Shown here piece by piece: positions 5,419 to 62,073 of a DNA stretch of 64,000 nt. The position numbers and the translations under genes were made by a program. Under the pieces are notes generated by a model, which had not been told where the DNA came from, made no database searches, and saw nothing but the letters and a program-made list of their open reading frames with translations. The stretch's first letter is position 1. Each line of letters opens with the position of its first letter. This DNA comes from Eledone cirrhosa (taxonomy: Eukaryota), in assembly GCA_964016885.1 (NCBI GenBank), contig OZ024744.1:74028001-74092000 (forward strand), in the 5' to 3' direction.

Positions 5419-7028
5419 TTGATAGTTACAATAATAAAGGCTGGACAGAGAACACATTTTTTAACAAACTTTACAATAATTTGTACTACCATAATGGAAA
5501 TTCCAAGTAACAGAAAATACATAAATTACATTGTTAGAGCATCAGAGTATATAATATTTTTTGTTAGGCTCTCGGGAGCAAAGATGAAGAGATTGTTTGG
5601 CGAGTTCACCCTAGAACATCCTACATACAATTTACCATGGGATAAGCATGGTTTTCCCAGATGAAGGCCAGCCACTTTTAGGATTTGACCCTGAGTTTTG
5701 TTGGGGGTAATCGCGAAGCTTGGTTTCTCTGTTGCTCTAGTAACATTTTTTTCTTCTGGAAAATCTGATCTTGCGGCCAGGCTGGGACTTTTGGGGTCGC
5801 TTATCGGCAGTAAAAAGGATGATAAGCTGTCTGAGCTTTCGTGAAATAAATACGTTTGTTTATTTATTTTTTTTTTGTATGCAAAAATATCTGTACACGA
5901 ATATATAATTATATATATATATTTATATATATATATATATAAATTAATAAAGACAATGAAATAAAAACAAAGAACATGTTCCTTATATTGAAAAAAATTA
6001 TCATTTTACGATTGTTTCTGGGATATATGTGTGTTGGTATGTATATCATATTAAAGATCTATGTAAACAAATTACAAATTATCAGAGGAGACATACATAC
6101 CTTCACTTATACATGCCATTTTCAGAAATGATGAAGTATGTTTATTGAAACAACGTATTAATACAAAAAGTCTGTTTGGGAACAGGTTTTGAATTGACCA
6201 ATAGAAAAGAGTTAGAGGTCCAGTTGATAGAATATCAGTAGTAGAAGTTATGCTAGGAGTGGAGGAATATAAAATAATGCTTTGAATGAAAAGAATACAG
6301 TGGGGAAGAGAAAGGGGTTAAAATGAGGTCAAGTCAATGAGATAGTGAGTGATTCTCAAAAAAGAAATTGATGTTATTAAAGAATGCTGTTAAAAACGAA
6401 GGGAAAATAATTTTTTGTTGGATGAGAGTGTTAGTGAGAAAAACTATTACTGTTTAAGTTTCAAGGAACCACGATGCATAAAGGGAAGTTAAATTAATTG
6501 AAAGGCATACTTACAGAGTTAAAATTATATTAATTCTTATGAATGTGATAAATAAAGAAGTAAAAAAAGTAAAAAATAAAAAATATATAAAAAAATATAT
6601 ATAGAAAGACTGAAATAGATAAAATGTTATGAGAAGTAGTGTGTCTATCTAAACATCCATAATATTAAAGATATAAATTATATTTACTAATCCTAGGTAT
6701 TATATGCGATAGATAGGGGATGCGGTTAAAAGAAGTAGTAGTGAGTTTAAAGATAACTTTAGGTAAAATGGGCTGCAGGAGGGAAATAAAATTATGAAAT
6801 TCTTTGTAGTAAATATCCAATTATAGGTTAACTAAATTAAACAATTTTTTTTAAATTAATTATAATAGTTTGTAAAATATAAGAGTGAGGTATATATTAA
6901 TTAAGTTTATAATATTTGAATGTTTTTCTAATTCTATGATTGCATGATATAATTAACTCCTGTCGCTTATTTAATAGGATATTATTGGATATCATTAGAT
7001 ATATATTAGGATATAAATATCCAACCAC

Positions 7029-9318
7029 ATGGATATTGATAATTATAATGAGTTCATTTATAAAGAACTCAGGAAAAGTTATAAAAAAACAAATAAAGCA
7101 GCTCTTACCGATATGAACAACAAAACATACAACATAGTAAATAAACTCAATATTGAAGACAGAACTGAAACCTTGGCACTGAAAAAACCGCACTTTAACC
7201 TGAAAAATCACAAATCTAATTTCAACTCTAATCCTTCTATAAGACTTATATGCCCTTCCAAATCAGACATTGGCATCATAAGCAAAATAAATTCTGGATA
7301 GAATTATCCCACAATTAAGAAAACACGTTAATTTACCACTCTGGGAAAACACATCCCAAGTGATTACTTGGTTTACTAATATTGAAAATAAATCCTCTGC
7401 GTCATTTCTACAATTCGATATAGATGCATATTATTCCTCTATATCACCCATACTCCTGAACAAAGCCTTAATATTTGCCAAAAATAGATCAGACTTAACT
7501 ATGGATGACATCAATATTATCACGCATGCTAGACAAACACTACATGAATTTCAGGAGTATTAGACCAGAAATACATATAGTAATCTCTTCGACATAACTA
7601 TGGGCTCGAGTGATTCTGCCCAAATTACCGATCTTGTGGGCCTTTTTCTTCTATTTAACATTAATTCATCTTTTCCCCATCTTAAAGGTGGTTTATATCG
7701 TGATGACCTATTTTCATCTTTCCACTAACCTTAGCTATCAGAAATTGAAAAAAATAAAAAACTTATTAGAACTTTCCTCAAAGACTATTATAATCTCACT
7801 ATTACATTTGAAAACACCAGTAAAATAGTCAATTTCCTAGATATAACTATGGAACTATCTACAGGTGTCTACCAACCTTACCATAAACCTAACCAAAACT
7901 TGCATTACATACACTCACAATCTAATCACCCTAGATCTATCCTTAAAAACCTTTCATAAAATCATGATGTATTCGATAAAAACGCGCCCTTTTATAATGA
8001 AGCTTTAGCTAGAAATGGCCATAAGAACAAATTAGTCTATATACCTTGCACCAATAATATTTCAAACATACAACCTAATATTACCAACAAACACCAAATG
8101 AAAAACCCACACCTGAATGCCACTCATACTACATCTAAAAACACCAACACCAATCTTAAATTCTCTACCTCTTCTCACATAAAAGATAATGACCTTCAAA
8201 AAACCATTCACCCTAATACTCTTACATATGTCAACAACATAACTAACACAATTCCTAGTAATCAGACTAAAACATCAATTAATCTAACTAAACCTATATA
8301 TAATAAAATCACTAATAGTAACTCTATCAATAAACCTCCCGATACATCATATAAATATAAGAAAGAATGTCGAAACCGTAATAGACGGGTTACTTGGTAT
8401 AATGCTCCATTTAATCTACAGATTAAAGACAATATCCCTAAAAAATTATTTTCTATCCTGGAAAAAAACTTCCCACCAAACCATAAATACCATCAAATTT
8501 TAAATAGATCTACTGTCAAATTTTCCTACTCCACTACCAAGAATATACAACATAATATAAGTGCTTACAACATATATAAGTGTAAAAAAACATAATTATA
8601 CCACAAACACATCAAACCAACCTTAATAATACTAAAATAAACCAAAACAAACCACCTTCTTCTTCACCTATAATAGGTCCTGTAAACTCCACGTCAATTT
8701 TGACTAATAATCTCCAAAACAATCACAACTCTACTAGCTCCACATCCCCTAAACTATCACCCACCAACAACCTGTCTAACCATACTAATCTAATTACAAC
8801 CCATTCTAAACAATACATTAATGAAAATAGTAACACTAATACCACTATAGATAACACAATTAACTCTCCTGATACAATATTTACGAATGGCTGTAACTGT
8901 AGAATCAAAAGAAATTTCCCATTAAAGGGAAATTGTCTTAATAATAACATAGTCTATAAATGTGTAATTAATACTAAGGACTCCACTCAATCCTATATAG
9001 GAGCTACGTCTAACCAATTTAAAGTAAGATTTAATACCCACAAACATAGTTTTAAAAATGCCGCATTAGCTAATACAACCTCCTAAGCTGAAGCAATTAA
9101 TAATTATAGAAAGAAGGATATTGATTACAACCTGACCTGGAGCGTGCTCAAAAGGGCCACCCCTTATCAAAATAGCAGATATGAAGGTAGGTTATGATCC
9201 CAAGAACTATTTGAAATCATGAAATCTAATGATATCCTATTAAATAAGCGACAGGAGTTTTTTTTATATCATGCAATCATAGAATTAGAAAAACCTTCAA
9301 ATATTATAAACTTAATTA
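7029..9318 (+). pseudogene. PLE reverse transcriptase plus C-terminal GIY-YIG endonuclease (frameshifted, with stops)
   Basis: [102 protein letters not shown]. Confidence 0.93.
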
Positions 9319-9828
9319 ATATATACCTCACTCTTATATTTTACATATTATTATAATTAATTTTTTTAATTTAGTTAACCTATAATTGGATATTTACTAC
9401 AAAGAATTTCATAATTGTATTCCCCTCCTGCAGCTCACTTTACCTAAAGTTATCTTTAACCTCACTACTTCTTTTAACCGCATCTCCATCTATCACATTT
9501 AATACCTAGGATTAGTAAATATAATTAATGTCTTTAATATTATGGATGTTTAGATAGATACTTTTTATAAAATGTTATCTATTTCAGTCTTTCTATATAT
9601 ATTTGTTTATATATCTAATGATATCCAATGATATTCTATTAAATAAGCGACAGGAGTTAAATATCATGCAATCATTGAATTAGAAAAACCTTCAAATATT
9701 ATAAACTTAATTAAAATTCTACTACTGATATTCTATCAACTGGACCTCTAACTCTTTTCTATTGGTCAATTCAAAACCTGTTCCCAAAAATACTTTTTGT
9801 ATTAATACGTTGTTTCAATAAACATACT

Positions 9829-9967
9829 TCATCATTTCTGAAAATGACATGTATAAGTGAAGGTATGTATATCTCTTCTGATAATTTGTAATTTGTTTAC
9901 ATAGATCTTTAATGTGATATACATACCAACACACATATATATCCCAGAAACGATCGTAAAATGATGA
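9829..9967 (+). ncRNA. PLE pseudo-LTR hammerhead ribozyme with about 100-nt stem II
   Basis: 9-bp stem I tcatcattt/aaatgatga; core CTGAAAA (CTGAAGA in the paralog at 37011-37148); GAAA-cgatcg-TA palindromic stem III. Confidence 0.75.
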
Positions 9968-10212
9968 TTTTTTTTTCAATATAAGGAACCTGTTCTTTGC
10001 TTTTATTTCATTGTTTTCCTTAATTTACCCTGACTCTGTTTTCCTATGATTTTTATCGTTAAATTTTGAATGCATTTTCTCATTTCATGATATCTTCTAT
10101 ATTTGGATTATATTGAGTTCTTCATAGGGATTGGACACTGCCGTTTATTTTGGTAGATTTATCTACACACACACACACACACACACGCACACACACACAC
10201 ACATATATATAT

Positions 10213-11698
10213 AAGAGGATCAAGGAGATCAAGGAGGGCAAGGCTCATGAAGAAGATGGAGTGGCATCAGAGGTGATGAAGAGGTGTGATTTTGATGATA
10301 TCATCCTGGGGTTCTGTAACGGGGCACTGGAGAAAGGAGTTGTCCCGAATCAGTGGAGGATCAGTAACATCGTCCCAGTGCCGAAGAAGGGAGATCTCTC
10401 TAACACCAACAACTACCGGGGGATCTCACTGACGTCACTTGTGGCAAAGACCCTCAACAGGATGATTCTTAACAGGATCCAGCCTGAGATGGAGAAGAAG
10501 CTCAGGGACAACCAGAACGGCTTCAGAGAGGGTAGATCAACCAGTCACATCCTGATGCTGAGAGGATATTAGAGGGAGCTAGAGCAAAGTGCCTTCCTGC
10601 GGTCATAGTTTTCATTGACTTTAGGAAGGCCTTTGATTCTGTGGACCGTTACTGCCTGATGAAGATCTTACAGGCTTATGGAATCCCCAAGAGGATAGTG
10701 GACCTGATATCACTGCTCTACACCAACACCAAAGCCCATGTCATTACACCTGATGGGATGACAGAGTTCTTTGAGATACTGGCTGGAGTGCTCCAGGGAG
10801 ATACATTGGCTCCCTACCTTTTTATCATCGTAGTGGACTATTGTATGCGCCTTGCACTGGAGAAACACCAGGACTCTGGCTTTACTGTAGCACCGGCTCA
10901 GAGCAGGAGAGTTGGGGCGTAAAAGGTATCGGATGCTGAATTTGCCGACGACATAGTTTGGGTGACAAATACAGTGAAGGAGACAGAGGATTTGATGCGG
11001 GAGGTTGAGACTGTGTCGATGAGTGTGGGGCTGAGAATGAATGAGACTAAAACAAAATATCTGGTAGAGATGTTGAGAAGCCAGAGGGGATCACTAATGT
11101 AGGCGGGAAGCCGCTGGAATTGGTTGAGGACTTCCTGTATTTGGGAGCAAAGATTGGGAATACGGAAGATGATGTGGTTGAGAGGAAGAGCAAGGCCTGG
11201 GCGGCGTGTCACAGCTTGAGATCGGTGTGGAAGTCGGACCTTCGTAGAGACCTGAAAATCCGCCTCTTCATTGCTGTAGTGGAGTCTGTGCTGCTGTATG
11301 GGTCTGAGACTTGGACACTGACCAAGAGACTCACTCAGATGGTGGATGGGTGCTACACGACAATGCTGAGGATGGCTCTGAACATTAATCAGTATACACA
11401 GAGGATGAAAAACTCAGAGCTGTATGGGAGCATCCCAAAAGTCAGCTCAAAAGTGACACAGAGGAGACTGAGGTTGGCTGGACATGCTCACCGACATCCA
11501 GAGTTAACATTGCACTCAGTGCTCCTTTGGGAGCCCCTACATGGACACACTAGAAGAGGAAGACCAAGGTTAACATATGTTGATGCCCTAAGGACAGACA
11601 CTGGTCTGTTGGAGATGCAGGATATGGCAGCGATAATAAGGGACAGAGACCGCTGGAGAGAACTCGTCCATGGATCTCGGGAATTTTTCCCGCCTTAG

Positions 11699-12810: not shown

Positions 12811-13142
<332 letters not shown>

Positions 13143-14347: not shown

Positions 14348-14351
<4 letters not shown>

Positions 14352-14544
14352 GGAACCAGTAAGACCCCGACAGCTGAGCTCAAGCCGTTTCGACGGCTAA
14401 TTCTGGACTCGAATTAGCCGTCGAAACGGCTTGAGCTCAGCTGTCGGGGTCTTACTGGTTCCTATTACCCACTCTACTACCTCAAGTATTGAGTACTTTG
14501 GTGCGTTATGGTCCACCTCGTTCCTTACCACATTTCCTTCGTTA
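14348..14544 (+). mobile_element. Fold-back HHR-remnant element (family P), copy 1
   Basis: Perfect 56-bp inverted repeat (14348-14403 / 14411-14466) containing GAAA-cggcttgagctcagctg-TC (HHR 3' half), then a unique tail into (TA)n. Confidence 0.88.
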
Positions 14545-20048: not shown

Positions 20049-20387
20049 TGTGTGTGTGTGTGTATGGACACGTCGTATTTCTAAAGAAATACGGTTTTAG
20101 GAAGCCGAAGCTATGCAAACACCGGCGCTAAAGCCCTCTGGTGGTGTCCAGCAGAAGCAAGGGGGAGCACCGTCTATGCATTCAGGCTTCACTGGCTTTA
20201 GTCAGGACGATCCCTCCCACCGCTTGCTACTTTTGGACTTAGAAACAGCCGAGAATATATAGTTTTCTCGTCTGTGTAAATGAGGTGATTAATCTCATTT
20301 GCATATGAAGCTGTATAAGTTGGCTCAACTTGAAGCGAAATCTTATTTCTTTTCTATTATAAGTTGAGCCAACTTATGCAGCATCAT

Positions 20388-20437
20388 ATGCAAATGAGAT
20401 TAATCACCTCATTTACACAGACGAGAAAACTATATAT
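20388..20437 (+). promoter_or_regulatory. Octamer - PSE-like - TATA cassette (putative snRNA/type-3 Pol III-like promoter)
   Basis: ATGCAAAT at 20388, TCACCTCATTTAC at +9, TATATAT 35 bp after the octamer; same spacing in other families. Confidence 0.55.
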
Positions 20438-20480
20438 TCTCGGCTGTTTTCAAGCCCAGCAGTAGCAAGCGGTGGGAGGG

Positions 20481-20524
20481 ACCGCCCTGACGAAGGCCAG
20501 TCAAGCCTGAAATGCATAGACGGT
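20481..20524 (+). ncRNA. Type I hammerhead ribozyme (minimal, palindromic stem III)
   Basis: accgcc-CTGACGA-aggc cagtcaa gcct-GAAA-tgca-TA-gacggt; stem I extends (ccagcag..agcaag / cttgct..ctgctgg); copies at 30608-30651 and 30931-30974. Confidence 0.9.
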
Positions 20525-20674
20525 TGTCCTCCTTGCTTCTGCTGGACACCACCACAGGGCGTTAGCCTCACTGTTTGCATAGCTATGGCTTCCTAAAACT
20601 GTATTTCTTTAGAAATACAACATTTCTATACATATTTGTATAAAGCTATGCTTGAAGCGAAATCTTATTTCTTT

Positions 20675-20716: not shown

Positions 20717-21245
20717 ACTCCAGAGTGGGAGTGGTGAGGCAACCCGCAATGATGGTAGAACTCTATCTAGGATCCTCTTACTGATAGAGCCGATGTCTGA
20801 ACGAGTGGGGTTGATAAGTCTGACAGATAGTTTGTTGAGGAAGTTTCACTTATGGTCCTTCAGGGTAAAGTGCGGGGTCTTTACCCTTAAAGGTTCGGTT
20901 CGATCATATAATTTAAGGGACTCGGCGATTTCTTTTCCGGCCGCGTTTGTCTCAGTCAATGCCATCTCTATTACCTTTTTGTAGGGGGTCGTGATGGCAT
21001 TTTTTGCCAGCTTATTGTAGGTCTGTGGGTCTACCTCATAAACGTTTTTTATTTTATCGAAGGAGACATGAAGATTAGGGGCTAATCTTCATGTCTCCCC
21101 CGATAAAACGTTTATGAGGTAGACCCACAGACCTACAATAAGCTGGAAAAAAATGCCATCACGACCCCCTACAAAAAGGTAATAAAGATGGCATTGACTG
21201 AGACAAACGCGGCCGGAAGAGAAATCGCCAAGTCCCTTAAATTAT
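20714..21245 (-). mobile_element. Internal PLE (Nematis-like) RT fragment with fold-back duplication, within (TA)n
   Basis: Minus strand LYDRTEPLRVKTPHFTLKDHK..VRLINPTRSDIGSISKRILDR..LPLWS; 20907-21078 mirrored at 21083-21245. Confidence 0.88.
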
Positions 21246-21325: not shown

Positions 21326-21597
21326 ATTAAGAATATTTTCGAAACAGCGAGTGGGTCTGAAATTATTAGAAATGTAAGCTATCGCCGTATTTTGACTAAA
21401 GAAATTAAAGAAATTATTTAGCCTGATAGTGGGGTTAGGAACCCTTGGAGAAATGGAAAAAGATGAGTATTGACTCCCATGTACGTCAATACTCATCTTT
21501 TTCCATTTCTCCGAGGGTTCTTAACCCCACTATCAGGCTAAATAATTTCTTTAATTTCTTTAGTCAAAATACGGCGATAGCTTACATTTCTAATAAT
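21326..21597. repeat. Fold-back insert (about 113-bp arms) between TA tracts
   Basis: 21362-21474 is the reverse complement of 21485-21597. Confidence 0.85.
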
Positions 21598-21781
21598 TGT
21601 TTCTACTTCAGGCACAAGGCCAGCAAATACCCAGTGCATTACTGGTACTTTATTTTATCGACCCCGTAAGGATGAAAGGCAAAGTCAACCTCGGCGGGAT
21701 TTGAACTCAGATCGTAAAGGGACGTAACTATGCTGGAAAGCATGGCGTCCGACCCTCTACCGATACTGCCAATCCACCGCC
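21598..21781 (-). mobile_element. tRNA-derived SINE (family 1)
   Basis: Near-identical to 5234-5418; TSD cttacatttctaataat. Confidence 0.93.
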
Positions 21782-21822: not shown

Positions 21823-22622
<800 letters not shown>

Positions 22623-22628
22623 CTTTAT

Positions 22629-25600
22629 ACTTAACCACGTATATTTAATATGCACTGTGATGTAAAATTATTATTTTACCCGAATAGTGTATATAATGAA
22701 AACGTTGCCTTAATATTTGCCTCAGACGAGTCCCATTGGGCGAAACATGTGTAAGAGCTTTATAAAGATATGATTTAACGGCTTGTAACTCTTTCATTAA
22801 TTATTTTGCCTATAACCGCTCTGCTTATCCTGTACACCAAATATTAATTTTTTCTCTAATATTTAACCCTGATAACCCAAGCATCGAGCACTTAGGCACC
22901 CGCTCTTGGCATGTAATACTCTGTATCACACCTCTTTATACCTCTTCTTTCTATCCTCTTTTACGGTACTGCAACATTTCATTATCGCGCTCCTTTCAAT
23001 AGAGCCCAACTTACTACTTGCTATCATGTTGGAAAAACAACAGTCACCTATGTCTCTCAAATCTATACCTAGACCTAGCAGAAAAAAACTTACCTTAAAC
23101 AACTCATTGCCGCTACGAATTCGTTTATACGAAGGGTCAGATGGAAGGCCTACCATTTGGATAAGGATACTGATAATCTTCCAGCACCTAAAGAAAAATA
23201 CAGCTTTAAGACCTACCAGAACCCACTGCACAATACACTGTTGGACTCATTTGAGGAATATTTGCTCAAAATGATCAAAAATATCAAGTTTAAGATTAGA
23301 CGCAAATGCAGCAATACGTTCCTGACATCTCTGGACTCTCTCATCACTAAAATCAAGAACGATATAAACCTTTTCGTTGCCTCTGATAAAACTAAGAACT
23401 TGTGTAAGTTGGATGTAAGTAGATATAGGCAATTCATCTATAATGAATTAAACAAAAATTACATAAAAACTCCTATTAGCATTTTAAACGACATTAATAG
23501 ATTAAGCAAATACATTGTAACTAGCTTAGATATAGATAAATACACTAACCCTTATGTACGTATGACACCAATATTTTCTCTCAAGGATCACAAATATAAT
23601 TTTAACGAAAGCCCCTCTAATTAGATTAATATGCCCCTCCGCTTCAGATATAGGTAGAATTAGCAAAGTGATCCTTGATAGGATGATAACTGAACTTAAT
23701 AGTAGATAAACCTAAGGTCCGTCTCTGGAATAATACCGACCAGGTCATTAAATGGTTCACAGATCTACCTGATAAGGTATCTCTGAAATTTATCCAGTTC
23801 GACATAAACAATTACTACGCCTCTATTTCCCCTATACTCCTAAATAAGGCCCTCATTTTAGCTAGATCTAACACTAGTTTAACTAAAAAAGAAATATATA
23901 TAGTGCTTGCAGCGCGGAGAACCATTGCTCATTTCGAGGGCTCCTACTGGACCAGAACCAACCGTCCTGATAACTTTGATATCACGATGGGGTCAAGTGA
24001 CTCAGCGCAAGCAACTAACCTGGTCGGGATTTACCTCCTGCACATACGAGATCCTTGTGCTACAAGGAGGAGTGTTTAGGGGCGATGTCCTATTCACTGT
24101 AAAGAACCATAGCCCCCGTAGAACAGAAAACCTTAATAAACATATACAGAAGTTCTTTAAATCATACGGACTCTCTGTTACTATCGACCACAACCATAAT
24201 ATAGTTAATTTCTTAGATGTTACGTTAGAATTAGGTTCCGGAGCTTATACAGACCATACCACAAGCCTGGTGAGGTCCTTTCCTACATAAACTATGCTTC
24301 TAACCACCTTAAATCTAGGCTCAACTCTATTGTGTATAGCATCTCACATAGAATCTCGAGGTTTTCTGCTAATGAAGACATCTTCAAACAAACTGCTGAT
24401 TATTATAACAAGGCATTGGCTGAATCAGGTTATAACAGCAACATTTCATACCTCCACGACGCAGGCTCTATAAAGCCCCCCTCTTGTAGGACCAGTGTTA
24501 TAGCGAGCCATACCTATAAGCAACGCCACCGCGGCCATACAAGCGTATAAAGTATTAGAAGAGCTAATACTGCCATTAGCTACGGCCCGCATCAGAACCA
24601 TAAAGCTAGCGGGACGGGTATATTACCATACACACACCATCATGGTCTGGTTGATTATAGTAGTAACTGCAGCCTTCTGGAATTATTCACTGCTTACAAG
24701 CTTAATAAAGGTGACAGTTTATTACCTGCACCTTCTAGCCCGCCTTGGGTAACCCTAAACCGCCGCACTACGGGTGTCTGTGCACTCAGGCATAATGCCA
24801 ACAGTGCACACATTATACAGCAGCCCTATAGACCTGATAAGGACATCCACCAAGGTAATAACCCCCGTGGTAACCCCAGAACTACGCGTAATCGCCACCA
24901 TAAGGAGTATGGCCTCCAATTTACCCAGCATCTTTTTCGACGCCTTAGAGAAGAACTTTCCACCTAACAACAACTACAGAAAAATCCTCAATAAGAATAA
25001 CGTAAAAATCTCCTATTCCACTGCACCTAATCTAGCCGACCTCATAGAAATAAATAACCACAGCAAGCTCACTAGAATACAACATGCTAGTAATGAGAAT
25101 TTTAGGGAATATGACAACTCGGTTAACCTTAACAGTTCTCTGGCCCCGCATTATAACGATAGTAGTGACCAGAACAGGTATCTTAGTATTAGCAGTAGAT
25201 TACACAATAGCACCACGTTAGAAACTAACTGCTGCACCAGTAGTGTGACCGACGAGAAGGCTAGAAACCATAACAGCTCTAACAACGGCTGTAGAAGACA
25301 CTATAACACGAGAGGTGTGCGTGGCACCATTTCGCGTGTTTCTAGCTATAATAATGCCAACTACAAATATGGTAGCTATGGTGATGGTGTAAAATAATAA
25401 TAATACGATTAACACCAACACTCACAACCTTAGAGGTGACAACAAAAAACATTGCAATTGTCGTAAACCTGTGGACTATCGACTCCGAGGCTACTGCTTG
25501 ACTAGAAATGTTATCTATAGATGCACGGTTAATAGTCATGATAGTGTTAAGTCTTACATAGGAGCTACTTCTGGGGCGTTCAAGACAAGATTTCGGGCAC

Positions 25601-26572
25601 ATCTCCACTCTTTCAGGAATAGGAAGCTTAGATACTCTACCTCCCTCGCTAATTATATTACCCAATTAAATGACTCTAACATTAGCTACACCACTCATTG
25701 GGAAATTGCGAACCAAGCAAAACCATACAACTTTTAAAAAAGCTGCCAACTCTGCCTATTGGAACTGTATTATATAGTGCAAGCACCCCAAGAGCTAATA
25801 AATAGTCGTGCTGAAACTGTCATCATTTGCGGCCATCGACTACAACAATCTTTCTACAGATGGACCCCAACAACTGTATAACCACCATAACACCTGATGT
25901 TCTCAACACCACACCCTGTTCTGACTTACCGGCGGTAGACTTACCATTTAACAACGTGGAATAACACCATCACCCACCCTCTGTTCTCCCGCCAGGAAGC
26001 CGCACTGCGTATGTTCAGCCGGACCTACCCCGTTGGTCTTTTGGTAATCTTACAAAACTGCTGCCTATACCCAAGCAACTTCTTAGACAATCGATCATAT
26101 AAATATACAAATTATATCCAAACTGACTTTATTTTTCTATGCCTTCAAATTCGCACCTAACGTGCCCCTTGCTCTAGTTAAACCTGTGTGTGGTCTTTAA
26201 CGACTTTACCAATAGTATATCATTTTCTCACCTTAACACAGCCTCATTTACACCGAGTTAACCAACCCTGCTTATGTTAATTCCTAATAAATTTTTTACA
26301 TAGCTGGTACATGTCATTTGTTTGACAAGAAACTTTATACTAGCACCGGTAATTACCTACCTTAGCATACTAATATCTTCCCACTGTGTTTTAAACTTAA
26401 CCACGTATATTTAATATGCACAGTGATGTAAAAGTATTATTTTACCCCAATAGGGTATATAATTAAAACTTTGCCTTAATATCTGCCTCAGACGAGCCCC
26501 ATTGGTCGAAACATGTGTAAGAGCTTTATAAAGATATGTTTTACCGGCTTTCTTTCATTGATTATTTTGCCT
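22629..26572 (+). mobile_element. Near full-length Penelope-like element (Nematis-like) with direct pseudo-LTRs
   Basis: 22629-22812 repeated at 26395-26572; decayed RT/GIY-YIG ORF between them; HHR-like core CAGACGAG-tccc att ggg-CGAAAC-atgt-GTA in both pLTRs; 3' end in (TA)n. Confidence 0.92.
23025..25880 (+). pseudogene. PLE RT plus GIY-YIG (frameshifted)
   Basis: KYSFKT, VASDKTKNL, FSLKDHK, QFDINNYYASI, MGSSDSAQ, VNFLDVTL, NFPPNNNYRKILNKNNVKISYS, CNCRKP..GYCL..VIYRC..YIGATSGAFKTRFRAHLHSF. Confidence 0.92.
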
Positions 26573-26592
26573 ATATATATATATATATATAT

Positions 26593-26785
26593 ATAGGAAA
26601 ATGTATATGACCCGACGGCGGAGCTCAAGCCGTTTAGACGATTATTTCCAGAAATAGCCGTCGAAATGGCTTGAGCTCTGCCGTCGGGGTCATACATTTT
26701 CCTATTACCCACTCTACTACCCTAAGTATTGAGTACTCTGGTGCGTTATGGTCCATCTGGTTCCTTACCACAACTCCTTCGTTAT
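26593..26785 (+). mobile_element. Fold-back HHR-remnant element (family P), copy 2
   Basis: Same architecture and tail as 14348-14544; flanked by (TA)n. Confidence 0.88.
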
Positions 26786-27718: not shown

Positions 27719-28547
<829 letters not shown>

Positions 28548-30119: not shown

Positions 30120-31045
30120 AATAGGATTTCACTTCAATATATATAAATATTTCGTATCTCTAAAGAAATACGGTTTTAGGAAGCCGTAGCTATACAAACA
30201 CCGAGGGGCTGACGCCCTCTGGTGATGTCCAGCGGAAGCAAGGGGAAGAACCGTCTCTGCATTTCAGACTTAACTGGCCTTCATCAGAATGGTCTCTCCC
30301 ACCGCCTGCGACTGCTGGACTAGAAGACAGGCGAGAATATATACTTTTCTCGTCTGTGTAAATGAGGTGATTAATCTCATTTTCATATGAAGCTGCATAA
30401 GTTGGCTCAACTGATAATAAAAAAGAAATAGGATTTCGCTTCAAGCATAGCTTTATACAATATGTATAAATATTTCTTTTTTATTATAAGTTGAGCCAAC
30501 TTATGCAGCTTCATATGCAAATGAGATTAATCACCTCATTTACACAGACGAGAAAAGTATGTATTCTCGCCTGCCTTCTAGTCCAGCAGTCGCAAGCGGT
30601 AGGAGGGACCGTCTTGACGAAGGCCAGTTAAGGCTGAAATGCATAGACGGTTGTACCCCTTGCTTCTGCTGGACATCACCAGAGGACGTTATTCCCCCGG
30701 TGTTTGCATAGCTACGGCTTCCTAAAACCGTATTTCTTTGGAGATACGAAATATTTATACATATTGTATAAAGCTATGCTTGAAGCGAAATCCTATTTCT
30801 TTTTTATTATAAGTTGAGCCAATTTATGCAGCTTCATATGCAATTGAGTTGAATCACCTTATTTACACAGAAGAGAAAAGTATATATTCTCACATGCCTT
30901 CTAGTCCAGCAGTCGCAAGCGGTGGAAAAGACCGTCCTGACGAAGGCCAGTTAAACCTGAAATGCATAGACGGTTGTCCCCTTGCTTCTGCCGGACATAG
31001 CTACAGCTTACTAAAACAGTATTTCTTTGGAGATACGAAATATTT

Positions 31046-32512: not shown

Positions 32513-33137
<625 letters not shown>

Positions 33138-34316: not shown

Positions 34317-37230
<2,914 letters not shown>

Positions 37231-37233
<3 letters not shown>

Positions 37234-37405
37234 GTCCCGGATTCAACCGGGGGTAACTACAGTAAGTGAAGTACTCAATACATTAGTAGATTATATACAA
37301 AATTTAATATAGAAATGGCTTCTAGAGGACTAGAAATGTTTCATTCGTAAGAAATCATCAGAATTCTAGTCCTGTAGAAGCCAATTTTATATTAAATTTT
37401 ATATA
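37231..37405 (-). mobile_element. Second copy of the 12945 fold-back family
   Basis: Shared tail and arms; minus strand CTGATGA tttcttacgaat GAAAC. Confidence 0.8.
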
Positions 37406-37407
37406 TG

Positions 37408-37459
<52 letters not shown>

Positions 37460-37463
<4 letters not shown>

Positions 37464-37662
37464 CGAAGGAAATGTGGTAAGGAACCAGGTGGACCATAAC
37501 GCACCGAAGTACTCAATACTTAGGGTAGTAGAGTGGGTAATAGGAACGAGTAGGACCCCGACGGCTGAGCTCAAGCCGTTTCGACGGCTAATTCTGGACT
37601 AATTCTAGTCCAGACTTAGCCGTCGAAACGGCTTGAGCTCAGTCGTCGGGGTCCTACTCGTT

Positions 37663-37667
<5 letters not shown>
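37460..37667 (-). mobile_element. Fold-back HHR-remnant element (family P), copy 3
   Basis: Reverse orientation of the 14348-type element; TA flanks. Confidence 0.88.
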
Positions 37668-40485: not shown

Positions 40486-41895
40486 AAATTAAGATAGATT
40501 AAAAGAATTCAAAAGAATCGAAATTGTGGGTGTCATTCCATAACGGAATGCACCATATCGCCCGGAAAATAAGCTCTAGGACCTTGTAGGTACGAGCATT
40601 TAATAATAACTAGGAATTGATCAACATATATATAAATAAATATAAACATGAAAAATCACAGGAGATAATTTCTACAAGCGTGTAACCACGCATGGCTAGT
40701 AGGTAACAAGTAAATAAAGTTAACTAGAACTTCAAAAATATATACCTTTTAATGATTAATCTTGCCTGTATATATTTCATTAAAGAAATATATTTCACCA
40801 ATTAATCAGATGGTAAGTCACGGAAAGTGGATATTATTGGATTATCAACAAGGAAGAATAATATCAAGCGATCCATGTTTACACTTCGAGTCAACATCTT
40901 AAACTGGCCGTTACCACGTGTTGATATTACACATCACAGCGGCTTCGTTTCAGTGGCGTGAATAGGTATTTGACAACTAGAAATAGCAGTCAATTCCCTT
41001 CAACAGAGTTAGCTCTACAATTAAGGAGCAGTATTTATATATCTATATCCAAAATTAAGATAGATTAAAAGAATTCAATCAGAATCTAAATTGTGGGTGT
41101 CATTCCATAACGGAATGCGCCATATCGCCCGGAAAATAAGCTCCAGGACTTTGTAGGTACGAGCATTTAATAATAACTAGGAATTGATTAACATATATAT
41201 AAATAAATATAAACATGAAAAACTTTATTTACTTGTTACCTACTAGCCATGCGTGGTTACACGCTTGTAGAAATTATCTCCTGTGATTTTTCATGTTTAT
41301 ATTTATTTATATATATGTTAATAAATTCCTAGTTATTATTAAATGCTCGTACCTACAAAGTCCTAGAGCTTATTTTCCGGGCGATATGGCGCATTCCGTT
41401 ATGGAATGACACCCACAATTTAGATTCTGATTGAATTCTTTTAATCTATCTTAATTTTGGATATAGATATATAAATAATGCTCCTTAATTGTAGAGCTAA
41501 CTCTGTTGAAGGGAATTGACTGCTATTTCTAGTTGTCGAATACCTATTCACGCCACTGAAACGAAGCCGCTGTGATGTGTAATATCAACACGTGGTAACG
41601 GCCAGTTTAAGATTTTGACTCGAAGTGTAAACATGGATCGCTTGATATTACTCTTCCATGTTGATAATCCATTAATATCCACTTTCCGTGACTTACCATC
41701 TGATTAATTGGTGAAATATATTTCTTTAATGAAATATATACAGGCAAGATTAAAAAAGGTATATATTTTTGAAGTTCTAGTTAACTTTATTTACTTGTTA
41801 CCTACTAGCCATGCGTGGTTACACGCTTGTAGAAATTATCTCCTATGATTTTTCATGTTTATATTTATTTATATATATGTTGATCAATTCCTAGT

Positions 41896-41900
<5 letters not shown>
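40484..41900. mobile_element. 1.4-kb palindrome built from a monomer of about 565 bp (about 1.3 + 1.2 copies)
   Basis: 40484-40655 repeated at 41050-41222; 41221-41900 is the inverted multimer; TA flanks; HHR-like variant at 41692-41748. Confidence 0.9.
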
Positions 41901-44819: not shown

Positions 44820-45140
44820 TCAGTCTGAACTACCCAGAAGACTCGATTTCCGTGTCCTCTAAGGCAGAGCTGTTCCTCTACACGATTTGCTGACTCCTGG
44901 CGTATAGAATGTTGCTGGAGATTCTCGTACTACAAGTTTTACCTTTGCCATGCTTATCACATGTACAATCTTCTTAAGCACATGATTGTCTCCATGTGTA
45001 TCTTCCCCAGTCTATTACTACTTTGCATAAGCTCAAAACGTGTTCCACAGTATCTACCGTGACTGAGGTTTTGATGTTTCGACAGCAAATTCCTGTCTTG
45101 AATTTGATGGCTAAATGTCAAGAGCTCAGCCGTTTGCCGC
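44820..45140 (-). pseudogene. HERO/NeSL-like non-LTR retrotransposon zinc-knuckle fragment
   Basis: Minus strand TVEHVLSLCKVVIDWGRYTWR..HVLKKI. Confidence 0.65.
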
Positions 45141-46030
45141 TGATTATGTATTATATAAATATATATATATATATATTAAAATAACAGATTAAAGTTTAAG
45201 CAAAGAATCACTGATTTCACCCATAACGGGATCTTCTGAAACTAAAAAAAATCAATCTGTGAACGCAGAAGTAAATATTTCGAAAAACGTTGCAACAGCA
45301 AGAAAACAGGGTTCTTATATATTTGATATATATTTAACCTTATCGAGCCCTCTTTGGATTTTAGTCTTCAAATTTATTATTATTACTATTTATATATACT
45401 ATATATATACTATATATATACTATATATATATACTATATATATATACTATATATTATACTATATATACTATATATTATACTATATATGCTATATATTATA
45501 CTATATATATATAATTAGTTACAACAGTGACATAAACATGTACTTAAATGTTGTTGGGTTATACACCCCAACCCATTCAACCTGTAACTATTATAATTAA
45601 CGCCTCATATGGACTGAGAGCTCTTACCGTTGGATTTTTCTACCAAACTTATATTACAGTATATTCATATATGTACTCAAATGTAAAGTTTTTTTTATAT
45701 ATATCTACCACACGGGTAGAAATATGGGGAAGAAAATGTGTAAATGTAATTGGAGTCTTTAAGAAGATTTATTTATATTAACTTATGACTTTAACTCATT
45801 TCAGATTTGAGTTACAAATCGGCATAGCCACAAATCTCTCCATCTCCTTTAACGTTTGAAAATAAATTGTTAAACCGGTAAGTTATCAATTATTGTAAAT
45901 AACCCTTCTTAAAGGTGGTGCGAATACATATACACAAGTAATTGCTACACACACACACACGCGCACATACACTCATGGACACACACACACATAAATAAAA
46001 TTCTTATTTTATATATATATATAAATAAAG

Positions 46031-48254: not shown

Positions 48255-49115
48255 TACTTGGTGACCCACAGAGTCTCACTGATGTTGCAGTCGACTGTCA
48301 CCAGGCCAAGCTGGTGCTACCCTTCAAATCCATCGTTGAAGAGTACAAAGTCGAAGAAGTAAGGCACTCGACCATGCTTGAAATATCGAAAAATAAAGGT
48401 CATGATGTCGATCCAGCCGAAGCTGAAAACAGACAGAAAATGGAAGGTCCAGGAGGTGGTAGATGCAATACAGGAAAACCTTAGGATCAGACAAATACTT
48501 GTTTCTACTTTTGGCACAAGGCCAGCTTTATTTTATCGACCCCGTAAGGATGAAAGGCAAAGTTAACCTCATCGGGTTTTGAACTCAGACCCTAAAGGCC
48601 CGTAACTCTATGCTCGGACGCCTTGCTTTGCAGCATAGAGTTACGGCTGTTTATGGTCTGAGTTCAAATCTCGCCACGGTTAACTTTGCCTTTCATCCTT
48701 ACGGGGTTCATAAAATAAAGTACCAGTTATTGCTGGCCTTGTGCCAAAAGTAGAAACAATTATTTCTTTGATCGTAAAATAATGGGACACACTGAGGCCA
48801 ATTGCCAAGGACTGGGTGTAACAAAAATGAAACAAAAACGAACAGAGGCCAGGGGAATGTTGAGGAGAGATCTGATTTTTGTTGGAGGTGAAGAAAGAAG
48901 AGGATTCCAGAAGACTCCGGAAGGCATTTCAACAGAACTAACAGGGCCAGTGGATGACATGGGAAGGTGCAGTCCAGAAGTGTCTAAGCCGGAATGACTT
49001 GTATCTTACGGGACCTCCCAGAATCAGTTTTTTTCTCAGATCTGTCTACGATCTCCTTCTGTCGAATACGAATTTAGTCAAGTGAGGCAAATCAGATAAC
49101 GACGTTTTGACAGCA
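48255..49115 (+). pseudogene. HERO-like non-LTR retrotransposon fragment interrupted by an inverted SINE pair (48499-48762)
   Basis: KLVLPFKSIVEEYK, LKTDRKWKVQEVV, QGLG, QGQWMTWEG, RISFFLRSVYDLL. Confidence 0.75.
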
Positions 49116-49350
49116 AATTCTAGACTGGCACTGATTCTCTATTATATTTACTTTCTACTACCCCAAGTATAGAATACTCTGCTGAATTATGGTCTTACCT
49201 GTTTAAATCGGTATTATCCTGATCTAGATTTTTATATATATCTACATTCATCTATCAATCAATAAAACAATCCAATCTATCTACCTATCTATCTATATAT
49301 TTCTCTCTCACTCTCCCCCTCTCTCTCTCTCTCCCTCTCTCCCTCTCTCT

Positions 49351-56889: not shown

Positions 56890-59800
56890 ATATGTGTTTC
56901 TCATTCCCTACGGTTTCCGCCTCAAGTTTCACCCCACATCTTACCCTGCTCCCACCACTGAGCCCATCCTTACCCGGTCCTCTCGCCAGCTCATGCGGGC
57001 GACCATTCGATCAACTCTCGCCCAAATCCGATCTCTCGACCGAGATCTCCCCAAGGCCTACCTCCATCTCTCCTCAACTTGCCACCCTTTCCTCACCCAA
57101 TCCCTTATCCAATTCATCCTTTACCTCAATCGCCGCCTTTTCAATTTCCTCACTTCCGTAAAAAAAACACAAACTCGACGCTCTCCGCTCCCCGCATGCC
57201 GTAATCACCCATACTCATATCACCTCCAACCCTAACCCCTCTATCCTGTCACCTACCACCCCATTTCCTTTCCCCACCGTACCCCAGGACCTACCACTCT
57301 CAGAAGCTGAGTGCTCCCTCCTCGCCCGTGGTTTGCGTTTCATACCAACCACATCTATCTGCGACGAGTTCCGCACACGTGCCGAGATTGAAGGATTCCT
57401 CCGTCGATTATAGCTGAAAGCTTTTTTTAACGACACGCCATCATCGACACAGACGGATGACTTCATTCGTCTCAGTCGCCGCAGTCAAATTGGACGCCGA
57501 GCCCTGGCCAATTCAGCACCCTCGACTCCTTTGTACTTGCAGGCGTATTGTGAATTGGTTCTTTTTCCACCAGCATTCTCGTCGCTCTAACATCACGCGA
57601 ACTGAGCTCTCCGCTCTTCGCAACCTTCGGCGACGTGATGACATTGTCATCAAACCCGTTGACAAAGGTGGCACTGTGGTGGTTTGGAGCGCTGACCTCT
57701 ATAGGGCTGAGGCTCCCCTCTAGCTTCACAATACCCTTTTTTTACCGCCCTTTATCCTCTGATCCCACTCCTGGCTAGCAACAAATTCGTGTCCTCCACC
57801 ATCCACGAGCTCATCTCCTCTCTCCTACCTCCCACAGCCACCAACTTTATTGTACGCATCCCTCACACATCCACCATCGACTTCCTCCCAAAACACACAA
57901 ACAAAATAATCCCGGCCGTCCTATCGTTTCTGCGTGCAACTGCCCTACCTAGATAATTTCTCAATATTTAGACACCATCCTCGCCCCGTTGGTCAGCAAT
58001 CTCCCCTCCCACATCCACGATACAAATCATGCCCTTAGATTCTTCAACTCTTTCTCCTTCCCTCCCGGACACTCCCGCCATCTCTTTACCCTGGACATCA
58101 CCTCTCTCTATACCGTCATCCCTCAAGATGACGGCCTCCGCGCTCTTCAGCACTTTTTAGATTTACGCCCTACCCCTAACCCCAGCACTACCTCTCTTCT
58201 CCGTCTGGCTGAGCTTGTTCTCACCCTTAATGGATTTTCTTTTTCGGGTGAAATTTATCAGCAGGTTTCTGGGATAGCGATGGGGACCAGAATAGGCCCA
58301 AACTATGCCAACTTGTTGTTGGCTACGTCGAAGCCCAGGTCTTCTCCCAGTATGCTGGAACTACTCCTGAGCTATACGGTCGTTAAATCGACGACTGTAT
58401 CAGCACCACCTCTCTATAACGAGAACAGCTCGACTGTTTTCGTTCTTTTGTCCAATCTTTCCATCCTGCTCTCAATTTCACCGCCTCCGTCTCCGATGCT
58501 TCTGTCGCTTTTCTAGATATCTCTCTATCTATTAATCACTCTCATCACACCCTCTCTACTTCCATCTTCATTACACCAACAGACTCCCAATCTTATCTCG
58601 ACTTCACCTCCTCCCATCTAACCCACACCAAACACTCCGTAACCTATTCACAATTCCTCCGTCTTCGTCACCATGTAGCCAGGACGACGATTTCGTAACC
58701 CATTCCCTTCGCATGGCTTCCTGCTTCATCCAGCGTGGATATCCCCCCACCCTGATCCAAGCTGCTCTCACCCGCGCCCGTGAAACAGACCGTACCACAG
58801 CCCTCTCACTTCACCGCCGCCCTCCCAACACCCGTGTACATTTCTCTCTCACCTACCACCCCATCACCCTACCACTCAAGCGACATATCCTCCTTTCCTT
58901 CTGTATCCTCTCTTCTGACTCCGTCATTTCTCGCTTTTTTCCCAAACCCATCCATTACTGCTTTTAAGCGCGCCCGCAACCTCCGTGACCTCCTGGTTTG
59001 CAGTTCCTTTTCGTCCTCTCTCACGACTCCACCAGGCCCTCACCATTGTTCCTGTTCTCGCTGCAACACTGTCCCTTTATTTGCACCACACTTACAGGCC
59101 CTAACGCGTCTTTCCATATCCGCCATTCCTTCACCTGCACATGCACCCACGTTGTCTATGCCATCCGGTGTTCCCTTTGCGGGTCTTTATATATCGGGCA
59201 AACGGGACGCCGATTGGCGGATCATTTGCCGAACGTTTGAGGGACATACGACTCGATTTGGATACTCCTGTCGCCCGTCATTTCTGTTCTCCTGGTCATT
59301 CTTCCCTACATGTTTCAGTCCTGTGTGTCCTTTTACATGATGGATCACAGGTTTCGCACACCAGGACTGAACACAGTCTGATTCACTGCATTGGGTCCTA
59401 TTCCCCTCTTGGACTCAACTCACCTCCCCAATTTCTCTAATACCCCGTCCATAATCACACCCCTATCGCTTTCTCTTGATCATTAACATCTTCTCTTACA
59501 ACTAATACCTGCTGACTATATATGCTCACTCCACTTTTCCCTTCACTGCTCTGTATACACACATATACACCCTTGTATTTACATACATTTGCTCATAGCT
59601 TTGTACTTACATGCACACACACTCTTTTACTCACATATACACACACATTCCTTTTAGCTTCGTACGGACGTATAATAACACACACACACACTCACACACA
59701 AGCACATGCTTACGCACGTGCACAAGTATAGCTCTTTTTACAAACCGTTTTTTTTCCATTTCAGGTAGACGCGCTCCCTCATCTACTTTTCTAAAAAATA

Positions 59801-60055
59801 AATCATACACAAAACGCCAGCACCAACAGTTTTGCAAGAGATGTCAACATGAATGGAGCTCTTATTTGTATCTAAAGACATTTTTTTCCAATTACATCCG
59901 GCTCGTACCCTCAAACTATCTTATTTCTCCTGCTTTCTTATGGAGGACTAGCGTCGGAAACGTTAAGATCCTCTTTCTGCTATATCAAGCATTAACCTAA
60001 TATATACCTTCCATATACTGTACCGATTGTATTGTTATTTCTGTTTACTTTTTAC
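56890..60055 (+). mobile_element. Near full-length Neptune-like Penelope element (decayed RT plus Zn-finger/GIY-YIG)
   Basis: IPYGFRLKFHP, IVIKPVDKGGTVVV, PGRPIVS, FTLDITSLYTVIP, QVSGIAMGTRIGPNYANL, CSRCNT..FTCTCTHVVYAIRCSLCGSLYIGQTGRRLAD; 3' pLTR ends in (TA)n. Confidence 0.93.
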
Positions 60056-60540: not shown

Positions 60541-61730
60541 ATCATCATCATCATCATTCGTCGACTACTGTCGAGATGTGGATCTCACTCTCATGCCCCA
60601 GAATTCCCTGTCCCCATCGCTATCCCCAGGTCCTGTCTACTGATTCCTGTATCCCTAGAGATAACGTCAGGGAATGACAGCTTCCTACTCCTAGTCAGGC
60701 TGGAGTCAGGGTTCCAGAACAAGAGAGCTGATATGATTTCATTGCTGGCACGGTGACAGTGGCGAGCAAATTGAGCTCTCCGGGATTTTAGAAGGGCAGA
60801 GGCTCGAGGGAGTTTGCCATAGATTTTAGACAAGGTGGGATGTCGTTTCCAGGATAGGTTTTGCACTCTCATTAAGAGGCGGGTATATGTGCCATCCAAT
60901 CTCCTCTCAAGTTGTGATGTTAGTGTCCAAGTTTCGGATCCATAAAGTAATATGGGCTTAATGGTTGCTTGGAATATTTCCAGTTTTAGCTTGTTGGTAA
61001 GTTGAGATGTCCATATGGTGTGCATGTCATGGCACGCTGACCATGCGATACCCTTCCTGGTTAGAAAATCTTTTTTGGAGGAGGAGATATATGAGCCAAG
61101 ATACTTGTAATCTTCCACCTGCTTAAGGGTGGTACCATTAAGGGTTCTGATGGGGTAGTTTGGGCTGTTTGCGCATCTGTTCACATACTCAGTCTTGGAT
61201 TCGTTGAGGTACAGTCCAACACAGTTGGACGCTTGCTCTAATGACTTCAAAATACTCTCAGCATTTTCCAGTGACCGATTGATCAGTGCGATGTCGTCAG
61301 CAAAGTCGGTGTCGGTCAAGTATTTTTCTGGGTAGTGTGAGCTTCTCCTAGGCTGTAGTTGGTATCCCCTATCCTGAATCCTATCCACAGACATGCGCAA
61401 AACATAATCCACAACAATGATAAATAGATACGGAGCAAGGGTATCGCCCTGTAAAATTCCAGCGAGGATTGAGAAAGGTGTAGTTTCCCCATCTGGGGTC
61501 AGGACAGTTGATTTGGTATATGTATACATTACACGTATGGCCGCGATGATTTTATCAGGAATCCGATAGAGTTGTAGAATTTCAAACATCCCCGACCTGT
61601 CAACTGAGTCGAAGGCTTTCGAAAAATCAACAAAGATGAGTGCAAGGTCTAGATTGCGGTTTTGAGACTCCTCTATAAGTCGGCGAAGGCAGAGAATCTG
61701 GCTAAGTGTTGATCTACCTCTCCTAAATCC
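60541..61730 (-). mobile_element. RTE LINE 3' half (RT C-terminal region) with (ATG)n tail
   Basis: GFRRGRSTLSQIL, FVDFSKAFDSV, GILQGDTLAPYLF, DFADDIAL, YKYLGS, LLYGSETW; open reading frame to 60591. Confidence 0.94.
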
Positions 61731-62073
61731 ATGTCAAAAGAGCAAAGGAACTCATGGGAGCTCTTAAGAGCTCTTGGAGTCAATGGCCGAAAGGCGCTGC
61801 AGTGCCGGAAAAGTCAACTTCCTGCTACTAGTATGCTGGTAAGCTAGTACAGCGTATCTCCAGACGGATAGAGTGGGTCCGTAGCTTTGGTTAGCGACTA
61901 CTCTAGTGCTTGCAACACGAATAATTTGGGGAGGGTATAAATGCCAGGTTGGTATCTGGCGCCGGGTAACCCACCACACGGAGGAGAAAGCACCTTCTTC
62001 AAGACTTGGCTGTCAAATTCTTTCACATGTGTGTAGTAGTGGCGCCCACACACATTATTAGCTATTTGAAAAG

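Follow-up and report, generated by a model that had tools for sequence, protein, structure and literature searches.

The locus of Eledone cirrhosa studied here (contig OZ024744.1, assembly GCA_964016885.1) raises the question of how three short palindromes came to lie within (TA)n tracts and whether their centres were set by the fold of a hammerhead ribozyme. The window, meaning the whole analysed stretch of 64,000 nucleotides (positions 74,028,001–74,092,000 of the contig), had a GC content of 35%, was rich in microsatellites and carried broken retroelement ORFs. The three palindromic copies to which an earlier note had drawn attention were all recovered (family A in Table 1), each consisting of (TA)n, an inverted arm of 55–62 bp, a spacer of 2–7 nt, a direct arm, a 78-nt tail and again (TA)n. 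The arms were identical at 55/55, 49/54 and 60/62 positions in copies 1, 2 and 3, with spacers of 7, 2 and 4 nt, respectively; in copy 1 the spacer was supplied by the inverted arm, in copy 2 by the direct one. The site occupied by copy 2 was the TA tract immediately following the repeat 26390–26571, which flanks ORF remnants of the Penelope-like element (PLE) type.

Table 1. Palindromic copies, their parts and related features, in window coordinates.
Feature	Position	Strand	Remarks
Family A copy 1, whole	14349..14543	+
Copy 1 inverted arm	14349..14409	-	tcctat joined to left (TA)n
Copy 1 direct (tail-linked) arm	14411..14465	+
Copy 1 hammerhead 3' half (probable)	14423..14445	+	GAAA, 6-bp stem III, palindromic loop, GUC triplet
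Copy 1 tail, 78 nt	14466..14543	+	one end only; terminus cgtt/TA
Family A copy 2	26593..26783	+	inverted arm 26593-26648, 2-nt spacer, direct arm to 26705, tail to 26783
Family A copy 3	37462..37667	-	tail 37462-37539, tail-linked arm 37540-37601, 4-nt spacer, inverted arm 37606-37667
Old diverged palindromic relative	45060..45150	.	72% over 58 nt; 7-nt spacer, junction geometry as copy 1
Old diverged relative	49100..49215	+	tail match 83% over 41 nt; short inverted-arm-like stretch before it
Family B copy	12947..13138	-	layout as family A, related tail, complete hammerhead core in both arms
Family B copy	37232..37406	-	complete core in tail-linked arm; inverted arm ends before GAAA
Hammerhead-core palindromes, core mirrored in arms	2436-2951, 20064-20629, 27764-28192, 30146-30755, 32592-32945		four families
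Long palindromes without clear hammerhead	20911-21242, 21361-21598, 40606-41898, 48481-48777

In all three copies an inverted, 5'-truncated terminal repeat adjoined a direct copy, the tail extended from a single end and (TA)n flanked both sides; a TA target-site duplication is indistinguishable here, because both flanks are TA tracts. TA-joined ends were also found in three of the four public runs that were mapped on copy 3 (X1, 20,997 contigs; X19, 25,856 of 12.47 million reads; X4, 42 contigs; X7, 2), namely in X1, X19 and X4. The layout matches the insertion signature described for PLEs, an inverted 5'-truncated pseudo-LTR plus a tail (PMC8557442, PMC3846280), and the earlier idea of an integration footprint was thus right in kind. 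The endonuclease-bearing (EN+) PLEs treated in the same sources (Penelope/Poseidon, Neptune, Nematis) share with family A the head-to-head inverted 5' copy, the tail at one end, a short palindromic junction, an AT-rich or microsatellite target and a hammerhead motif in the terminal repeat. In contrast to them, family A has no ORF, measures only ~195–205 bp as a whole, lacks the 5' half of the hammerhead and has junctions clustered within about 8 nt; its 78-nt tail exceeds the published 30–40 bp, which counts against the account favoured below. A MITE with terminal inverted repeats fits poorly, the tail lying outside the inverted repeat and alleles specific to one arm being absent. The non-LTR retrozymes (bioRxiv 10.64898/2026.07.22.740005; see also PMC7229834) resemble family A in being short, non-coding, hammerhead-related, present in high copy number and probably PLE-dependent, but their units are arranged in tandem, head-to-tail, and each has a complete type I hammerhead, whereas the copies of family A are head-to-head and core-less. 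Family A is a real and abundant PLE-type family of known architecture, and its members are in all likelihood short non-coding insertions made by PLE machinery, with a pseudo-LTR and a tail in (TA)n. In the repeat annotation reported for Octopus vulgaris, PLEs make up 6.83% of the genome and ribozymes go unmentioned in the sections on which we draw (PMC13282606); one supplement of that paper contained no sequence match to family A. Pattern scans for the family gave no matches in metagenome contigs or in viral contigs, and two matches in prokaryote genomes were dismissed as chance, since the 22-nt pattern alone matched and about 1.1 such matches were expected.

All inverted arms ended at tcctat/TA, as had been claimed, and the same end base recurred in reads from other loci: TA was joined at this position in 98 contigs of X1, in 3 of X4 and in 3562 of the about 16,000 X19 reads (a biased library) at the arm end, although the arm in such reads could be either inverted or a tail-less direct copy, which the reads do not distinguish. 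In vitro, both strands of the target are cut and extended by the Poseidon protein of Anolis carolinensis, and synthesis begins at two internal sites matching the ends of the tail, with uncleaved, hammerhead-bearing RNA as template (PMC11167929). This element further resembles family A in its two fixed 3' ends defining the tail, its AC-rich terminal region and its AT-rich target; inverted arms are left unexplained in the available parts of that account. By analogy, the two fixed outer ends of family A (cgtt/TA, and tcctat/TA 78 nt upstream) would fit two start sites on the element RNA. Of the microhomology joining proposed earlier, the fixed tcctat/TA end stood, but a second reverse-transcription start site of the kind reported in PMC11167929 accounts for it at least as well.

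Each direct arm of family A contained C-GAAA-C, a stem III of 5–6 bp with the palindromic loop GAGCTC, the triplet GUC and then GGGGTC, that is, the helix III features of a type I hammerhead (GAAA, a helix III closed by A15.1-U16.1, and an NUH triplet). The assertion that only the 3' half is kept was borne out, with CUGANGA upstream in 0/3 copies; a helix II with G10.1-C11.1 together with CUGANGA, or with its U3-A8 variant UUGANAA (PMC4209133), was likewise absent from all three. The 3'-half pattern appeared in 2 of 5000 dinucleotide shuffles in its strict form and in 38 of 5000 in its relaxed form. Rfam found no hammerhead in a single arm plus tail (one match, Vault, E 2.8) and, among the 150 listed of 172 matches for the whole window, only matches driven by hairpins or microsatellites; a strict hammerhead scan, which missed several motifs found otherwise in the window, was left out of the counts. 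The word AGCCGTC is present twice in the arm, before GAAA and at GUC, and on its own the arm therefore takes up a competing hairpin; its overall fold is not better than that of shuffled sequences (z 0.35), and the GAAA...GUC motif may have originated by nested inversion.

The assignment of this motif was aided by a sister family of two copies, family B, whose tail is related to that of family A (1 and 21 of 5000 shuffles) and whose core is complete. The distance from GAAA to the shared tail motif is 57–61 nt in family B versus 63 nt in family A, and because of this matching position the family A motif is taken as most probably a hammerhead 3' half. Rfam matched family B to hammerhead HH10 at E 5.7, which is not significant. 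Like the hammerheads of PLEs, family A has GAAAC...GUC with a palindromic loop 3, but its helix III is 5–6 bp long as against 1–2 bp, and the core and the 5' strand of helix II are absent (PMC4209133); opposite-strand hammerhead pairs 100–700 bp apart were regarded in the same 2014 paper as probable truncated PLEs. Being without CUGANGA, the inserted copies of family A should not self-cleave. A type II permuted hammerhead with its core in the family A tail was considered and rejected, the tail having no core-like word. An RNA 5' end at 37601 produced by cleavage at an upstream ribozyme of the family B type was also rejected, because the letters shared with family B lie in its loop III and not after its cleavage triplet. 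The centre of copy 3 (37594-37605) has 11 letters in common with the adjacent family B copy ~230 bp away (37361-37375), probably by chance. Arm plus tail of copy 3 (37462-37601, minus strand) may represent a degenerate dimer with a period of ~58 nt, a marginal signal (116/5000 shuffles).

Among 17 variable columns over the six arms, none separated left from right arms and 6 grouped the arms by locus. The check by an arm tree placed together the two arms of copy 2 (97/95) and those of copy 1 (89/89), as expected if arms cluster by locus, and yielded no left/right clades, but did not resolve the arms of copy 3; in raw distance the tail-linked arm of copy 2 lay 9 from the other arm of the same copy, but only 7 from the tail-linked arm of copy 3. 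The arms differed within copies by 0, 9 and 2 columns in copies 1, 2 and 3, respectively. The mirrored variants had been called private to each copy, which did not hold: all 8 mirrored alleles looked up were shared within the family, at 1.1–45% of the summed contig depth in X1 and 5.6–73% of the reads in X19, and a further variant of the same segment was seen both TA-joined and tail-joined in many records. The mirrored alleles being those of the family, a single subfamily source gave rise to the two arms of a copy; mirroring does not by itself say how the two arms were made.

On copy 3 coordinates the six inner arm ends lay at 37594, 37600/1, 37598, 37594, 37601 and 37601, that is, within 8 nt and 12–19 nt upstream of GAAA. 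The three junctions all differed, including which arm was the longer, and the inverted arm of copy 1 extended 6–7 nt further upstream than its tail-linked arm. That the centre is the ribozyme's own stem II must be regarded as unproven: the centres differ between copies, and the hairpin found there is no evidence for a natural stem II, because the inversion itself creates it. Non-inverted continuations were seen among the 20 listed of 403 loose-end rows, behind 37602 in 78 contigs of X1 and 1 contig of X4 with the same consensus, and behind 37590 in 110 contigs of X1 and 1591 reads of X19. By eye, the X1/X4 continuation (37602) and that of X19 (37590) form an imperfect hairpin with GGCT/AGCC closing just 5' of GTC-GAAA. 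Over their 30 letters, the continuations in these 20 of 403 rows contained no CUGANGA, U3-A8 variant or G10.1-C11.1 pair, and the expected intact parent with CUGANGA upstream was not found there; a 13-nt motif taken from one upstream continuation had 2 matches in the window at 2 mismatches, as chance predicts. It is plausible that the template forms a hairpin close to the junction, and the parent may have had a longer helix II. An accumulation of 7270 X19 read ends at 37593 was rejected as a biological end: the position is AATT, which we take to be the restriction site of this RAD library, and the ends were most likely made by the enzyme.

Among the joints between opposite strands (15 listed of 20), 11 linked a piece with its end at 37590-37605 to one on the opposite strand that ended at 37494-37563; in 6 of these 11 the latter end fell within the tail, and one of the six was present in X1 as well as in X19. 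The asymmetric joints were of low depth, and four at 37546 may represent alignment breaks at a variable segment; the contigs and the X19 library under-sample symmetric joints, so that the listed joints give no share of the symmetric ones.

Other palindromes of the window served as controls. Most of the 14 examined lay beside TA or other dinucleotide tracts, and near-symmetric junctions were the rule: besides families A and B, 8 long palindromes had arms of 113–612 bp and spacers of 0–64 nt. In five of the eight, belonging to four families (the palindromes at 20064 and 30146 are one family), a hammerhead core was located 41–143 nt downstream of the junction; of the remaining three, one gave loose hammerhead matches only and two gave none. 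The palindrome 27764-28192 has the U3-A8 core variant, and its part 28009-28084 matched Rfam HH9 (E 0.0007, below the gathering score); 40606-41898 has 612-bp arms of 98% identity with internal duplications. With junctions so far from the core in four other hammerhead families, a junction at stem II is not the rule. In the two copies of family B the junctions were within about 10 nt of the core and the arms as short as those of family A, which makes a short template or a fixed 5' end an alternative to a stall at stem II. It is unlikely, in our estimate, that helix II of a parent with an intact hammerhead sets the junction, with both cDNAs of a double-primed PLE insertion stalling and annealing there; if this were true, each new copy would be a hairpin that has lost the ribozyme core, and the strand-joining step of PLE integration would be recorded base by base in thousands of copies.

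The account of family A that we favour, and to which we give about an even chance of being correct, is that two cDNAs are primed on opposite target strands and joined by annealing. An endonuclease would nick both strands of the TA tract, as suggested by work on another PLE clade (PMC11167929), and at each nick reverse transcription would begin on one of two defined RNA sites, the tail end and the position 78 nt upstream, where the ends are observed and priming is presumed. Both cDNAs would copy the same or sibling source RNAs, giving the mirrored subfamily alleles that are observed; they would traverse an uncleaved hammerhead 3' half and stop, or be trimmed, in the short region where the inner ends are seen to cluster. 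There, short words that are self-complementary, together with an imperfect hairpin of the template, would allow the two 3' ends to anneal and be filled in, with the spacer coming from either cDNA and an early stop of one of them producing asymmetric copies. Because the arms group by locus without left/right clades and the junctions differ, the palindromes are most likely a footprint of retrotransposon integration made new at each insertion. In the twin priming of LINE-1, two target nicks prime two cDNAs and their microhomology joining leads to a 5' inversion; the parts of LINE-1 copy mostly different RNA segments, whereas those of family A copy the same segment, resulting in a palindrome. No open-access paper was found that links PLE junctions to a ribozyme or PLEs to twin priming, and the origin of the inverted terminal repeats and tails of PLEs is described as still open in PMC8557442 and PMC11167929.

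A fold-back, as the earlier note had it, is possible but rather improbable: a tail-primed cDNA would stall at a hairpin 5' of GAAA, possibly stem II, fold back, copy itself as far as tcctat and be linked through microhomology to the TA tract. Arkhipova et al. (2013; PMC3846280) had inferred self-priming from the palindromes that occur at inverted PLE junctions, and thus both the architecture and the general idea are already published. Near-symmetric junctions, as seen in the three copies and the 8 long palindromes, are predicted by it directly, while double priming explains them only by annealing at self-complementary words or hairpins; the hairpin just 5' of GTC-GAAA in two non-inverted continuations is also in its favour, even though it comes without the G10.1-C11.1 pair or the core, and tcctatta is the first longer (TA)n match that the second strand would meet. 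In a one-step fold-back the inverted arm can contain nothing that the tail-linked arm lacks. Copies 2 and 3 agree with this, and they do so as well as with double priming, but copy 1 does not: the 6–7 nt of its inverted arm that are absent from the supposed template call for a later deletion. The six listed joints (15 listed of 20) with a long inverted arm and a direct part ending inside the tail follow directly from two separately primed cDNAs, whereas fold-back again needs later deletions, and the distance of 41–143 nt between junction and core in the other hammerhead families is a further argument against it. Two separately primed cDNAs are in turn burdened by the failure to find an autonomous partner for family A, or an intact parent with a core within the 30 letters of the 20 listed of 403 loose-end rows.

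The inversion might instead have arisen once or a few times, in a MITE-like palindromic master moved in trans by PLE proteins, with subfamilies copying the whole hairpin, intra-strand conversion homogenising the arms and the centre decaying. Mobilisation of sequence in trans by the termini of PLEs is possible, and 5' palindromes occur in some pLTRs (PMC3846280); two fixed outer ends, centres within 8 nt, an old 72%-identical copy with the junction geometry of copy 1, mirrored alleles equal to subfamily alleles and the further variant both TA-joined and tail-joined would all agree with such a master. We nevertheless consider it quite unlikely, given that the three junctions and the longer arm differ, that the centre of copy 3 is not shared (the depth past it in X1 dropped from millions to about 15,000), that arm-specific alleles are missing and that there are non-inverted upstream continuations shared between records; the TA-joined share of the X19 reads was also below the half expected if all copies were palindromic, with the library bias to be kept in mind. 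Palindromes are a known type of chimera, and the absence of a Rfam hammerhead match on the arm would be compatible with a chance likeness. However, arms that differ by 0, 9 and 2 columns, the same end base at three loci and the same TA junction in independent contigs and raw reads have largely refuted an artefact of assembly or library, and the rarity of the motif in shuffles at a position matching the full core of family B speaks against chance; together these are highly improbable explanations.

What family A contributes is a useful test set: its short copies are very numerous, both of their outer ends are fixed and their junctions cluster tightly, so that fold-back and double priming could be told apart by a simple genome-wide comparison.

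In support of the PLE reading, the window contained PLE-type ORF remnants recognisable by motif (C-x-C-R linker, YIG.T, DKG, YRDD), with weak Pfam GIY-YIG matches (E 0.009 and 0.049), the ORF remnants staying below the Pfam cut-offs, which weakens this support; when one GIY-YIG-like ORF was searched against longer proteins, no homolog came up, and no DNA similarity was found between these remnants and family A. The segment 22624-26571 is a probable decayed full-length PLE, whose C-x-C-R linker is presumably Neptune-like; remnants of RT and GIY-YIG-type ORFs are enclosed by direct repeats (22624-22810 and 26390-26571) that contain a motif resembling a hammerhead (core CAGACGA). A further PLE-type element, whose ORF stretches are rich in asparagine, was present in two copies at 5942-10025 and 34424-37202, the former with an inverted 5' repeat (5942-6995). 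A Penelope/Poseidon-type remnant with DKG and YIGQT motifs was present at 57418-60054, with fragments at 21826-22179 and 22341-22623 and a complete hammerhead core in the fragment near 21943 (minus strand). LINE remnants with RT were found at 10117-11698 (plus) and 60591-63939 (minus), the latter having two long open frames (380 and 625 aa) and a Pfam RVT_1 match at E 4e-21 for 60594-61733. Finally, the segment 43861-43933, which matched tRNA in Rfam at 36.9 bits and so exceeded the gathering score, is possibly the head of a SINE.
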